Shown: positions 36,001 through 45,964 of the stretch, one piece after another | Position numbering within the stretch: position 1 is the first letter of the stretch | Layout of the letters: every line of letters begins with the position of its first letter | Source: Escherichia coli | Lineage (GTDB): Bacteria > Pseudomonadota > Gammaproteobacteria > Enterobacterales > Enterobacteriaceae | Assembly (NCBI RefSeq): GCF_029227855.1 | Contig: NZ_CP074357.1 | Length of the DNA stretch: 64,000 bases | Strand: one strand, 5' to 3' | Made by a program: the position numbers

Positions 36001-39000
36001 GCCCTCAAAAATCTGGAGCACCTGCTGCACGAGCTCAGTAACAGCATGCATAGCCTGGGTAAAAATGACTGGCCTCTGGTGTTCATTCGCCCCCGGCATG
36101 CCGAAATGGGCAGATGGTTAAAAGCGCATTATGATCTTTCCGCTGTCGACGGGTTTGTGTTGCCGAAATTTACCCTCAGTTCGTTAGCTGAATGGTGGGA
36201 TATCATGGGCGGGACTCACCTGTGCATGATGCCAACGCTGGAAACAGAAGACGTCTTTGACGTGGTTCAGATGCGGGAGCTGGCCACCCGTCTGGTGGAA
36301 CATCCCTGCCACGACCGCATTATTGCGCTTCGAATCGGCGGCAACGATCTTATGAACGTTGTGTCGCTTCGCCGTCCCCGGGACCTGACGCTGTATGACA
36401 GCCCGATGGGCTACGTCATCAAAATGCTCGTTTCGGTCTTCGGCCCGCGTGATTTTGCCCTGACCGCGCCCGTATGTGAGCATATTGACGATCATGCCGT
36501 AATGGCCAGAGAGCTGGCTCTTGATATGGCACATGGGCTTGTTGGGAAAACGGCCATTCACCCGGGTCAGATAGAGGTCATTCAAAACGCGCTGATGGTC
36601 ACTCAGGGTGAGCATTCTGACGCTCTGCGGATCCTGAACTCTACCCAGGCCGTGTTTAAGTCGCAGGGAGCAATGTGTGAACCCGCCACACATCGCCGCT
36701 GGGCGGCTGGCATTCTGGACAGAGCTCGTTTTTATGGGTTACAGAACGAGCAAAGCGCTGATGGAATCAGATTACTTACCGTGACCCAGCATCATTAAGG
36801 AAATCATAATGGGGTTCAGATTCAGAAAGTCGATCAACATTATTCCTGGTGTTCGCCTCAACCTGAGTAACGGTGCACCGAGCCTGAGTGTCGGGCCGAG
36901 AGGTGCTTCTGTTTCTTTTGGAAGCCGGGGGACCTATGCCAATCTGGGCTTGCCCGGTACCGGGCTGAGTTACCGTACCCGGCTTGATCGGGCCGCGCGT
37001 TCCGGAGGTGGGAACCGGACGGCTACCGACCCGGGGCTCAGACAGGCGCTTGAGGAGGAAGCCGCTGATCTCATGTCAGCGGTGACCGCAATCCGTAATA
37101 TTCACGAGCTGACGCCGGATCCTAAAACAGGCATCAGCTGGGCAGAGCTGGAAGCAGTATACCTGCATAACAGAACGTCGCCTTTTCAGGTTCCGGCACC
37201 GGTGCGTCCAGAAAAGCCAGACTATCTTGCATTGCCGGAAAAGCCTGCCGAGAGCGAAGGCATTAGTTTTCTGGGTAAATGGTTTGAATCGGAATCAGCT
37301 AAAGCTGAGCGCCACGCCGAAAATCTTCGCCGGTGGCAGCAGGAGCTGATTGATGTGGAGCGTGAGAATACCCTTCGACAGCACCGGTACCAGCAACAAC
37401 GGACGGCCTGGGCCGAACAGTATGCAAACTGGAAGTTTGAGGCTGAAGAACATGAAAAACGGCTCGCCACGGCTCAGGCAGATGCCCGGCAGCAGTTCCG
37501 GACAGACGCCGCGTTTTTCGAATCATACCTGGCGGGTGTGCTGGCAGAAACTGAATGGCCGCGTGAAACGCTTGTTGCATTTGAAGTAAAGCCGGAGCTA
37601 TCAGCAGTCCTGCTGGATGTTGATTTAGCTGAGATTGAAGATTTCCCTGATAAGATTTACGGCGTTAATGCCCGGGGCACGGAGCTGACGGAAAAAGCCA
37701 TGACGCAAAAAGCCGTACGCGAAAACTATGCCCGCCACGTCCATGGCTGCTTGTTCCGCCTGGTCGGTATCGTTTTACATACGCTACCGTTCGACAACGT
37801 GATTGTGTCAGGCTTTACGCAACGGGTCAGTAAGCGGACCGGCTATCTGGAGGATGAGTATATCCTGTCCTGCAAATGCAGTCGCAGCCAGATGTCGTCA
37901 GTAAATTTTGCAGGCTTAGAACACATTGATCCGGTTGAAGCGTTAGGCGATCACCCGGTTATTCGAAAGATGAGCAGTACCTTCATTTTTCAGCCTATTG
38001 AACCACTAACCCTTTAAGCAGGCTAAATCTTACGATGCAATTAAATACCAGACAGGCCCGGATTTTTAAGCTTGCCAACTTACTGGGCACCGGCAAGCCC
38101 GTTTCCGCTGCCGACATTATAACCAGTCTGGAATGCTCAGAGCCGACATTAACCCGGGCACTCAAAGAGCTACGCGAGTCATATTCTGCGGAGATCAAAT
38201 ACAGCAAGGCAGGTCATTCCTACCATCTCGTTAATCCGGGCCAGCTGGATAAAAAGACCCTTCGCCGGATGAATGAAGCGCTCGCACAGAATGCTGAACT
38301 GAAAACCGGTGAGTCCACAGGGAAGGTCGTACTCGATAAGGATAAAAAAACAGCCGTGTCATTATCGCTACGCATGCGGATTTTAAGAAAAATTGACCGT
38401 CTGGCTGCGCTGAGTGGCTCGACCCGAAGTGAAGCGGTAGAGAAGCTGGCTCTGCACTCCGTTGATGAACTGATAAAAGAATACAGCGCTAAAAAGTCCT
38501 GACGCTAAATCTCAGACCGGGGTGAAAACCCCGGTTTTGTCATATTTCACCTCTGTATCTGCGTGACGGAGTTTTGATCTATTCTCCTCCCGCAATGTCA
38601 GCAGCGCCTTTCTGCCTACAAAACCTGGTGTCTTGACATCCTCTTGTGCTACACATCAATCTTTGGGCGATTTACACTCCATTCATGCAGATCTGTGATG
38701 TATGATGATTTTCATACATAAGAAAGTTTATTTTTGCCGGAGTTTTTTTCAGAAATTTATATTCCAGTACGGTCTGAATTTTTTTCTCTGATAAGAGGCC
38801 ATTCACATGTCGGTAATTCAATGGTGGTTAACTTATTTCTTTAATGCCGCTTCTGAGTATTTAATCTCCACCCGACAGATGTCGTGCCGTTTTATCAAAT
38901 CTACAAACTCTGGCCTCTTCCTGAAACTACTCTCCTCTTCCGATCTCTTAAGAAGGAATTACATTTGAGACGCTTACCCGTATATCTGCTACTCGACACG

Positions 39001-45000: not shown

Positions 45001-45964
45001 ACGAGTTGGGTATTTTGTTTTCCATAACGATCAGTGGTGGTTAGTAAATGAAGGCATAAATGGGCTTATGTCATTACCGGATAAACGACAGATTGCCATT
45101 GGGGAAAAAATTGAACTGACGAATAACGCTCAGTTTGTTCTGTCAAAGGAGGAAGGCGGCAGGCTGGTCGTCGTTCAGTTAGTTGAAAACTAACGGACGC
45201 CCATTACGACTAAAACGTTCTGGCAGCATACTGAACCTGTTTAATGAATCACTATATTAAGCAGTGTCAAATTTAAGCTGCCAGAAAAAACTGACTGTCT
45301 GTGCCGGATATGCGGTACACCGCCTGCGGCAAGGGTTTAATGCGCAAAGCCCAAGTTATTTATAAAAGTGAATAGTTTTGTGACTCTACCCTGCCGCTCT
45401 TCTTTCCAGTGTCATGGTTTTTAACATCTGAAATACTGACATTGTTAAGCCGGTGATTGTAAAAGGCGATGCGGACAATCTCATGAAGATATTCAAGTTC
45501 GTTTTGTGTCAAGGACTGGCCTTCCTGGGTTTTTGAAATCATTTCCTGCCAGCAGATCAGTCTTTCGTAACTGACATGTTCGCTGTTTTCCAGGCAGTGC
45601 AACCTGAAATAGCGAAGGAACAAAGGAAATTCATCGGTCTGAGCGATGTCATAAGCCCGAACCGTTAACCGACACAGACATACAATCGTATCCTGCTGTA
45701 ACCTGACTAGCGCGTTATGACTGCCCGGAAGGATATCAGGCAATTTCATCTTACAGTCAGCAAGGCGCTGAAGAAGAGGCCCTTCCTCTGAAGGCTCCCG
45801 TCCCCGATACTCCTGAAGAGGTTCAGATTCAAGTTCATGCATTAATGGATGATATAGCCATTCCCGGGAACTGGTCTCATCAATGATCAGGCTTTCAATG
45901 CACTCACTGTATGTTGTTTTACGTCGCCCGAGCTGCACCTGACTGATTTCATATTCAATATCAG

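Follow-up and report, generated by a model that had tools for sequence, protein, structure and literature searches.

A predicted Ser/Thr phosphorylation switch in the TerY-P cassette of an IncHI2-type ter locus

A six-gene cassette downstream of terW

The window analyzed here is a stretch of 64,000 nucleotides (nt) from Escherichia coli contig NZ_CP074357.1 (assembly GCF_029227855.1), numbered from its first letter. At 38965–45193 on the + strand, downstream of terW, it carries six intact, co-directional open reading frames (ORFs) in the order terY1-terX-terY2-terY3-PP2C-kinase. Gene coordinates are RefSeq calls, and the annotated reference copy is plasmid pTB-nb4 (NZ_CP033636), with a classical ter locus. 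The cassette is the already described TerY-P module of the IncHI2 ter locus, known and annotated. Anantharaman, Iyer & Aravind named the triad at its heart in 2012 and predicted that it acts as a phosphorylation switch which senses metal, as summarized in PMC11090510, and in E. coli KL53 the genes are named terWY1XY2Y3 (PMC11003894). An earlier note on this DNA, drawn up from the sequence alone, had placed six co-directional genes at these positions, and its ORFs coincide with the RefSeq annotation of the identical plasmid; it also described the triad as known from comparative genomics, which agrees with the 2012 work as that summary gives it.

The first gene, terY1 (38965–39603), encodes a stand-alone von Willebrand factor A (vWA) protein of 212 amino acids (aa; Pfam VWA, E = 5.7e-14). 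It is followed by terX (39626–40267), whose 213-aa product belongs to the TerD family, as had been proposed (Pfam TerD, E = 6.5e-52), and by terY2 (40267–40905), a 212-aa vWA paralogue with a vWA-type NCBIfam match, the start of which overlaps the terX stop. The 346-aa product of terY3 (40991–42031) combines a vWA domain with a TerY_C domain (Pfam VWA, E = 3.2e-13; TerY_C, E = 4.5e-53). The last two genes bear out the assignments made from motifs: a PP2C phosphatase of 545 aa (42031–43668; Pfam PP2C_2, E = 1.8e-46), with a start that overlaps the terY3 stop, and a soluble Ser/Thr kinase of 499 aa (43694–45193; Pfam Pkinase at aa 151–269, E = 9.3e-10). All six genes lie on the + strand, and across the cassette proteins NCBIfam gave sub-threshold generic matches only.

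Two junctions, GTGATG between terX and terY2 and TTGATG between terY3 and PP2C, are the overlaps 40264/40267 and 42028/42031 listed in the earlier note; each measures 1 nt with the ATG start and 4 nt with the GTG or TTG start. These stop/start overlaps indicate translational coupling, and the cassette is predicted from them to be co-translated. The remaining spacers are 22, 85 (terY2-terY3) and 25 nt long. The tight packing claimed for the module breaks down at the hairpin-bearing terY2-terY3 spacer, so that packing is not uniformly tight. The start codon of terY1 is TTG, with an AAGGAA ribosome-binding site 5′ of it. The 462-nt gap between terW and terY1 is non-coding and includes a terminator-like hairpin at 38514–38537 (+ strand), with a 10-bp stem of which six pairs are G-C, followed by a T-rich tail. 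Because of this hairpin and the length of the gap, the cassette is probably a transcription unit of its own. A consensus scan for promoters and terminators gave no excess over shuffled sequence (5 vs 8.4 expected; 9 vs 9.0) and no convincing terY1 promoter; among its output, the post-terW hairpin alone is noteworthy. An Rfam scan of 24000–46000 (E ≤ 1) showed neither a riboswitch nor a known RNA upstream of terY1.

The terY2-terY3 spacer holds a perfect hairpin with a 17-bp stem at 40909–40945 (+ strand), directly after the terY2 stop. The surrounding 100 nt fold at −41.9 kcal/mol (z = −4.17), and none of 200 shuffled sequences folds as well. Hairpins of different sequence occur at the same position in the Enterobacterales loci L003–L016 of the survey described below, several of them followed by a U-run, while in loci of other orders the spacer is only 16–50 nt long and has no hairpin. 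Possible roles for the element are an attenuator or a signal for mRNA processing that would divide the cassette in two, terY1-X-Y2 and terY3-PP2C-kinase; as an internal attenuator, it may lower the dose of terY3, PP2C and kinase.

The vWA proteins and TerX

A complete MIDAS (metal ion-dependent adhesion site; DxSxS…T…D) can be read directly in TerY1, TerY2 and TerY3, as DTSGS…T…TDG in the first two and as DCSES…T…TDG in the third. The Pfam scan covered TerY1 and TerY3, and TerY2 is on direct reading an evident paralogue of TerY1, which upholds the earlier view of three vWA paralogues with MIDAS motifs. The accompanying description of proline-rich C-termini on all three fits two of them. TerY1 ends in LPPPPPEVNVVL and TerY2 in LPPPPPEIQLVL, but TerY3 carries the Cys-rich, metal-binding TerY_C domain (aa 217–346, window 41639–42028) and ends in FDVNRGRG.

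Across the 80 loci of the survey described below, these tails are conserved: LPPPP[PAS]E[VI]x[VLI]V[LIV]-COOH ends 118 of 120 TerY1 and TerY2 ORFs (55/56 for TerY1, 63/64 for TerY2), and FD[VI]xR[GS]xG-COOH ends all 55 TerY3 orthologues. A Ser/Thr-rich segment stands just after the vWA domain in all three paralogues, with the consensus FFKWVSAS.S.GS in TerY1/TerY2 (WVSASISVGS in TerY1, WVSASVSSGSTSAG in TerY2) and FI.WITASV.AQSRS in TerY3. Both the tails and the Ser-rich motif are conserved across phyla. When TerY1 was compared with the sequences of the Protein Data Bank (PDB), the sole match was chain A of 8S05, ArnB of Sulfolobus acidocaldarius (E = 3.8e-5), with the MIDAS residues aligned.

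TerX aligns over its full length to the solved TerD structures 3ibz (E = 1.5e-37) and 2kxt (E = 1.8e-33). It keeps the GDNRTGAGDGDDE metal-binding motif, corresponding to the acidic GDNxTGxGxGDDE of the TerD family, in alignment with 3ibz.

The phosphatase

The PP2C_2 catalytic domain occupies aa 284–529 (window 42880–43617, + strand). Its metal-binding Asp motifs, D296-D298, D316-G317, D424, D484-G485 and D537-D538, are invariant in 38 homologues, and the protein aligns with E. coli PphC at an hhalign probability of 94%, the Asp motifs I, II, VIII and XI (D296-298, D316-G317, D484-G485 and D537-538) falling on those of PphC. The catalytic domain is preceded by an N-terminal extension of 283 residues, made of a helical segment, a Pro/acid-rich linker and an immunoglobulin (Ig)-like module of the He_PIG/cadherin-like type (aa ~165–245, window 42523–42765, + strand). 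For residues ~165–240 the match is to SraP and its cadherin-like repeats (E = 3.9e-5), and the He_PIG Pfam model is matched in 1–3 of the 38 homologues. The phosphatase diverges far faster than the kinase, mostly in the N-terminal linker. In one Klebsiella/IncHI3-type orthologue pair, PP2C is ~47% identical as against ~86% for the kinase.

The kinase: a catalytic lysine in an unusual place

The kinase domain extends from aa 1 to ~350 (window 43694–44743, + strand). Alignment with PKA and PknG identifies H169-S-D171…N176 as the catalytic loop, D190-V-D192 in place of DFG, and GTPDFIAPE (206–214) as the P+1/APE segment. Residues D171, N176, D190 and A212-P-E214 are conserved in at least 54 of the 69 relatives in the family alignment. 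The motifs quoted earlier, RRGRSHEHAGSF and LVADGAGS for the phosphatase and HSDLSYKNVLID, DVDG and CPYCG for the kinase, are all present in the translations. The kinase is of the non-RD type: in column 170 the commonest residues are Ser (49 of 69), Gly (5), Ala (4) and Thr (3), and Arg is not among them. The conserved T207 is the sole Ser/Thr of the activation segment.

What is missing is the canonical β3 lysine (VAIK), since position 41 is Ala (VVA41FY). A lysine is found instead at position 28, in the Gly-rich loop (GSGSMK28DVY). In the family alignment, K28 occurs without K41 in 53 of 69 sequences, G28 with K41 (VVK) in five, and both lysines together in none; members with either lysine retain D171, N176 and D190 in all but a handful of cases. 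An AlphaFold2 (AF2) model built on the family alignment (pLDDT, for predicted local distance difference test, 96.4; predicted template modelling score, pTM, 0.95) places K28 in the second strand. In WNK kinases, a β2 lysine replaces that of β3 (PMC4718504). By this analogy, K28 apparently takes over the ATP-anchoring role of the β3 lysine, and hence the kinase, with a full catalytic set except for that residue, is predicted to be catalytically competent. The DVD loop does not speak against activity: YegI, a distant homologue whose DFG is replaced by DSD, is active as a kinase and prefers Mn2+ (bioRxiv 10.1101/819920).

The earlier note had named loss of essential catalytic residues as grounds for abandoning its proposal; in proper alignment the residues are present in both enzymes. 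Pseudokinase or pseudophosphatase status was rejected on this conservation, and so was kinship with WNK, the resemblance being a shared lysine position only. Around 11 of the 69 sequences, all distant family members, lack the catalytic Asp/Asn/Asp and both lysines and keep the overall architecture; these degenerate members look like pseudokinase offshoots.

Downstream of the kinase domain lie a zinc ribbon (C355/C360/C375/C378; window 44756–44827) and a domain of aa ~385–499 (window 44846–45190), both on the + strand. Foldseek with the whole kinase model returned only protein kinases and was uninformative on the C-terminus. When aa 348–499 are modelled alone, AF2 gives the zinc ribbon followed by an all-β domain with the β-sandwich of the forkhead-associated (FHA) fold. 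The model thus predicts an FHA fold at the kinase C-terminus, with phosphothreonine binding only putative. The canonical phosphopeptide-binding residues that are conserved are His419 (63/69) and Asn452 (63/69) only; of the signature GR, SxxH and NG, the Arg position (413) is Gln here and Arg or Lys in 25 of 69 relatives, and the Ser position (416) is Tyr, Phe or His.

Both names given to the kinase in RefSeq are misleading. For 'lipopolysaccharide kinase InaA family protein', the Pfam Kdo model covers only aa 156–192 (E = 8.8e-5), as against 151–269 for Pkinase, and the NCBIfam Kdo kinase model scores 25.7 bits against a cut-off of 142; the Kdo/InaA name is an over-annotation. The RefSeq/COG name 'helix-hairpin-helix domain-containing protein' is not borne out either, as the Pfam scan finds no helix-hairpin-helix family and the region in question holds the zinc ribbon and FHA fold instead.

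Conservation of the cassette across phyla

The kinase is unusually well conserved. An exhaustive search for its homologues yielded 2,959 clusters (50% identity) at E ≤ 1e-3, with 340 reaching E ≤ 1e-30; in most cases the alignment covers all 499 residues. Identity is 65–86% in the best 120 clusters, which come from gamma- and beta-proteobacteria. For a survey of gene neighbourhoods, a scan of one genome per species gave matches in at least 588 species; the best 80 loci were kept (kinases 61–88% identical), and ORFs were classified by the window's own proteins. The survey was seeded with 17 closer kinases, the 69-sequence alignment being too divergent, and it therefore covers the close subfamily, with kinases at least 61% identical. 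The 80 loci derive from alpha-, beta-, gamma- and epsilon-proteobacteria, Bacteroidota and Myxococcota, together with one metagenome-assembled genome labelled Erysipelotrichia.

PP2C lies immediately 5′ of the kinase in every one of the 68 loci with enough upstream sequence. Where at least 5.5 kb are available upstream (57 loci), three vWA genes are present in 40 loci and two in 13, and TerY_C and a same-strand TerD-family gene are each found in 50. The commonest order, vWA-TerD-vWA-vWA/TerY_C-PP2C-kinase, is exactly that of the window. Because the same order recurs in 80 species of several phyla, comparative evidence argues that the cassette is one selected unit. In 61 of the 80 loci, further ter or biosynthetic genes are found no more than 10 kb away. 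Outside this subfamily, a distant kinase relative with the canonical lysine belongs to a vWA-PP2C-kinase-WD40 locus, on a contig where ter genes are not to be seen.

In a phage collection, the sole match was an unannotated human-gut phage contig (MT835511.1, 32977–33633), 29% identical to kinase aa 151–399 (E = 6e-18). With only this one weak, partial kinase match in the collection, the cassette is not phage-borne.

Plasmid context and spread

Upstream of the cassette, the window carries terZABCDE(F) on the − strand (25242–31461), a block of 'biosynthetic' genes on the + strand (ATP-grasp, phosphoribosyltransferase, HAD-like, StiP, HpcH and DUF4236; 31785–38017), and terW (38035–38502). Between 20799 and 45964, identity to pTB-nb4 is 99.75%. 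A 1-nt indel relative to that plasmid falls in the divergent terZ/ATP-grasp intergenic region (31462–31784), presumably the site of both operons' promoters. The Rfam scan of 24000–46000 mentioned above gave only two sub-threshold matches, DLEU2_6 and anti-hemB, both outside the cassette and taken as chance; the small-RNA match to anti-hemB (26870–26942, − strand; 24.8 bits vs a gathering threshold of 49.5, E = 0.052) overlaps terE at its 3′ end and is probably fortuitous.

Downstream of the kinase, 1,954 bp are inserted relative to pTB-nb4 at 45965–47918. The insertion encodes istA (340 aa) and istB (260 aa) on the − strand and is an insertion sequence (IS) of the IS21 family, which we take to resemble IS100 in its size and protein length. 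The flanking alignments overlap by 5 bp, which resembles a target duplication. The element disrupts a gene for a 360-aa hypothetical protein 3′ of the kinase, leaving a truncated ORF at 45360–45992, and the cassette is untouched. The G+C content is 62.5% in the first 2 kb (1–2000), ~50% in the ter region and 35–38% at 54000–60000; these swings suggest mosaic acquisition, for example of a resistance module and AT-rich backbone genes.

Over the 6.5 kb around the cassette, identity is 100% with several hundred IncHI2 plasmids, from Escherichia, Salmonella and Enterobacter among other hosts. Cassette DNA is found in 1,303 of 72,556 PLSDB plasmids (over at least 80% of its length in 1,202), and the kinase is encoded on 2,338 PLSDB plasmids, ~1,090 of them from Klebsiella. 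The ter locus is carried by widespread multidrug-resistance and virulence plasmids, and a link between it and fitness in the gut has been made in Klebsiella (PMC8115787).

The cassette is dispensable for tellurite resistance

Of 5,426 complete genomes of E. coli, terZABCDE is present in 1,013 and the cassette in 339, so that about two thirds of the ter-positive genomes do without it. The ter island of O157:H7 (locus L085, chromosome of E. coli O157:H7 F8092B, 23124–28551) consists of terZABCDE, the biosynthetic genes and terW, followed by IS66-family elements in place of the cassette, and is a natural cassette-minus comparator. On another E. coli chromosome (hit H37), only the first 132 nt of terY1 remain, annotated as 'tellurium resistance protein TerY'. 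Strains with the O157:H7 type of island ('ter-type 1') and with the IncHI2 type ('ter-type 2') have indistinguishable minimal inhibitory concentrations (MICs) of tellurite (PMC8193136). Moreover, terBCDEF alone confers tellurite resistance, and pJS4, with terW and terZABCDE, is viable and fully resistant in the absence of terY and terX (PMC11003894). Because the island lacking the cassette gives the same MIC and terBCDEF suffices, the cassette is dispensable for tellurite resistance and not part of that mechanism. The KL53 work reports better survival under tellurite or oxidative stress with fuller ter clusters, in comparisons that do not isolate the cassette (PMC11003894). The earlier note had made its proposal hinge on whether the module is dispensable for all ter-associated phenotypes; dispensability holds for tellurite resistance, one of them.

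A proposed phosphorylation switch and its rivals

How ter genes give rise to phage, colicin and stress phenotypes is a question of some 30 years' standing, and the cassette is an obvious candidate for regulation or sensing. We favour, with slightly more confidence than doubt, a reading in which the TerY-P cassette is a self-contained, co-translated Ser/Thr phosphorylation switch, organized around vWA adaptors, that modulates the ter stress and anti-phage response. What the switch acts on, how its parts dock, which way the signal runs and what it brings about are proposals, the mechanism being drawn by analogy with ArnA/ArnB and YegI/PphC. The kinase would dock onto TerY proteins through its zinc ribbon, through their invariant tails (LPPPPPE..V-COOH; FDVxRGxG-COOH), or both, and would autophosphorylate and add phosphate to the Ser/Thr-rich stretch behind the vWA domain (FFKWVSAS.S.GS). 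The FHA-like domain might then clamp the phosphorylated partner into a tight complex, which PP2C, placed by its Ig-like domain, would reset. MIDAS faces and TerX could link the switch to the state of divalent metals and to the adjacent TerD/TerC machinery. Since the cassette is dispensable for tellurite resistance, the output would be a modulated stress and anti-phage response and not tellurite detoxification. Related triads that act in defence (PMC11090510, PMC7699616) also speak for this reading.

Several points weigh against this proposal. The role given to K28 is based on alignment, covariation and AF2 secondary structure. The Pfam FHA model has no match to the kinase C-terminus even at E ≤ 10, and phosphopeptide binding by the FHA-like domain is only putative because the canonical phosphate-binding Arg and Ser are missing. 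The TerY proteins lack the β-sandwich and helical bundle that bear the phosphothreonines of ArnB. The association with ter genes could be partly a product of clustering in defence islands. Finally, the literature searched yielded no experiments on the two ter-linked enzymes, PP2C and kinase, or on the cassette, in keeping with the earlier note's remark that signal, substrates and role are undefined.

The strongest rival, which we regard as unlikely, takes the cassette for an autonomous anti-phage system of the type described by Gao et al. 2020, which senses infection and by itself acts on targets in phage or host, adjacency to ter reflecting defence-island clustering and not coupling. A vWA-PP2C-kinase triad cloned alone indeed protects against T7-like phages (Gao et al. 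2020, per PMC7699616 and PMC11090510), and TerY-P triads are found, too, alongside CoCoNuT type IV restriction systems and others of restriction type (PMC11090510). The WD40-containing locus of the distant relative, with no visible ter genes, points the same way, as do the only PADLOC matches of the kinase, which are weak, generic kinase matches to the defence kinases PD-T4-6, mad6 and MkoA. Against autonomy, in this subfamily a TerD gene is interleaved in the cassette, TerD paralogues flank it in 50 of 57 loci, and other ter or biosynthetic genes accompany 61 of 80. In addition, the PADLOC TerY model (PDLC02224) and the other PADLOC models have no match to TerY1, TerY3 or PP2C even at E ≤ 10; with cut-offs of E 0.01 and E 10 alike, PADLOC assigned none of the vWA, TerD and PP2C proteins to a defence system; and the Gao-type kinase has an OB fold where the present one has an FHA fold.

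A second rival, which strikes us as improbable, makes the cassette a safeguard or antidote against the toxicity of TerZ/TerA and TerD-family proteins, as part of the 'protective region' terXYW of R478. Cloned from R478 into E. coli, terZABCDEF or terZA without the upstream terXYW segment is lethal (Whelan 1997, per PMC4633105), and the TerD paralogue of the cassette could form mixed complexes with TerZ, TerA, TerD and TerE. However, protection has been attributed to terW and not to terX or terY (PMC4633105). Furthermore, pJS4 is viable and resistant with neither terY nor terX, the O157:H7 island has terZABCDE and terW but no cassette, and about two thirds of the complete E. coli genomes that are ter-positive lack it.

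A third rival, to which we lend little credence, sees in the kinase itself a WNK-like sensor whose ion might be a halide, tellurite or another oxyanion, or a divalent metal bound through DVD, with the vWA and TerD proteins as outputs. K28 sits at the WNK position and its exchange with the β3 lysine covaries in the family; the arrangement in WNK1 permits chloride binding and makes WNK1 a chloride sensor (PMC4718504). The locus is also rich in metal-binding modules (three MIDAS motifs, TerD, TerY_C and the zinc ribbon), and switching by phosphorylation of the activation loop is unlikely because the kinase is non-RD and its activation segment has no Ser/Thr except T207. Yet this is wholly an argument from analogy: apart from the kinase fold, the sequence shows no kinship with WNK. 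The chloride site of WNK also uses residues of the DLG motif, for which a counterpart in the cassette kinase is only hypothetical, and the cassette is not needed for tellurite resistance. A bolder composite, which we hold to be rather doubtful, joins a WNK-like, ion-gated kinase to a bacterial counterpart of ArnA/ArnB: the zinc ribbon-FHA module would clamp phosphorylated TerY, the tails would dock, and the complex would trigger phage and colicin resistance via TerD/TerC, as a machinery that handles metal. If true, a complex of this WNK-like and ArnA-ArnB-like kind would be the missing trigger for the phage and colicin resistance of IncHI2 and Klebsiella virulence plasmids.

The last rival, a decaying plasmid passenger with no function, might draw on the absence of the cassette from many ter-positive E. 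coli and on the lack of an assigned phenotype, but is effectively refuted by six intact ORFs, by kinases 61–88% identical across Proteobacteria, Bacteroidota and Myxococcota, and by the conservation of catalytic residues, C-terminal tails and gene order.

For the phosphorylation switch that we favour, handles for mutation are K28, D171 and D190 of the kinase and D316 and D484 of PP2C. Further handles are the candidate phospho-acceptor segment of the TerY proteins, the candidate FHA-like reader, and the conserved C-terminal tails as candidates for docking. The Gly-loop K28, the non-RD catalytic loop with DVD, the TerY tails, the FHA fold and the Ig-like domain of PP2C were not found in the literature searched, and the original 2012 description may hold some of them. 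Such structural and motif details are incremental and leave the identity of the cassette unchanged.

Comparison with known systems

The chromosomal triad YegL-PphC (YegK)-YegI of E. coli K-12 is homologous to the cassette in all three of its parts, vWA, PP2C and kinase. TerY1 is 32% identical to YegL (E = 1e-24), and the kinase matches YegI (E = 3e-5), including the CPxC of the zinc ribbon. PphC is biochemically active and dephosphorylates YegI (bioRxiv 10.1101/819920, 10.1101/303594); at 253 aa, it lacks the N-terminal Ig-like extension of the cassette PP2C. The YegL locus differs further in having a single vWA gene, no TerD gene and no ter neighbourhood, and YegL has a Ser-rich end without a PPPPP tail.

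The ArnA/ArnB system of Sulfolobus, the best studied of those built from the same parts, shares the domain vocabulary of the cassette and uses it for a switch from a loose to a tight complex that depends on phosphorylation. The zinc ribbon of ArnA docks unphosphorylated ArnB, a vWA protein, and its FHA domain binds phosphorylated ArnB (PMC12852372). The kinase ArnC phosphorylates the C-terminal region of ArnB, tight binding by the ArnA FHA domain follows, and a phosphatase reverses the process (PMC6509490, PMC12852372). In Sulfolobus, the zinc ribbon and FHA domain form a separate protein, whereas in the cassette both are fused to the kinase; the phosphatase is PP2A instead of PP2C, and the output is archaellum regulation. 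The canonical Arg and Ser that the cassette FHA-like domain lacks also set it apart from the ArnA/ArnB switch, and the analogy with ArnB is only partial because the TerY proteins lack the phosphosite-bearing parts.

The TerY-P system of Gao et al. 2020 has the same three components, a vWA protein, a Ser/Thr phosphatase and a Ser/Thr kinase. At its C-terminus the Gao-type kinase has an OB fold (PMC11090510), in place of the zinc ribbon and FHA fold found here, and the triad works alone, unlike the cassette with its three vWA paralogues and TerD gene inside a ter locus.

WNK kinases carry their lysine in β2 of the Gly-rich loop, like K28 of the cassette kinase. The likeness is convergent only, as there is no specific sequence relationship and the cassette kinase has none of the WNK regulatory domains. 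In the threonine-phosphorylation pathway of the Pseudomonas type VI secretion system, PpkA-PppA-Fha1, a vWA-bearing kinase, a PP2C and an FHA reader, control the assembly of a machine post-translationally. That pathway differs in its periplasmic vWA domain, borne by the kinase, in its separate FHA protein, and in having a secretion system as its output.

The closest comparison is with the TerY-P triad as originally defined, which is the same system. What is found in the window is a TerY vWA protein with MIDAS, an adjacent PP2C and a kinase with the four conserved Cys of its zinc ribbon, next to terZABCDE, the biosynthetic genes and terW of an IncHI2 (R478-type) plasmid, and between that triad and the cassette there is no difference in kind.

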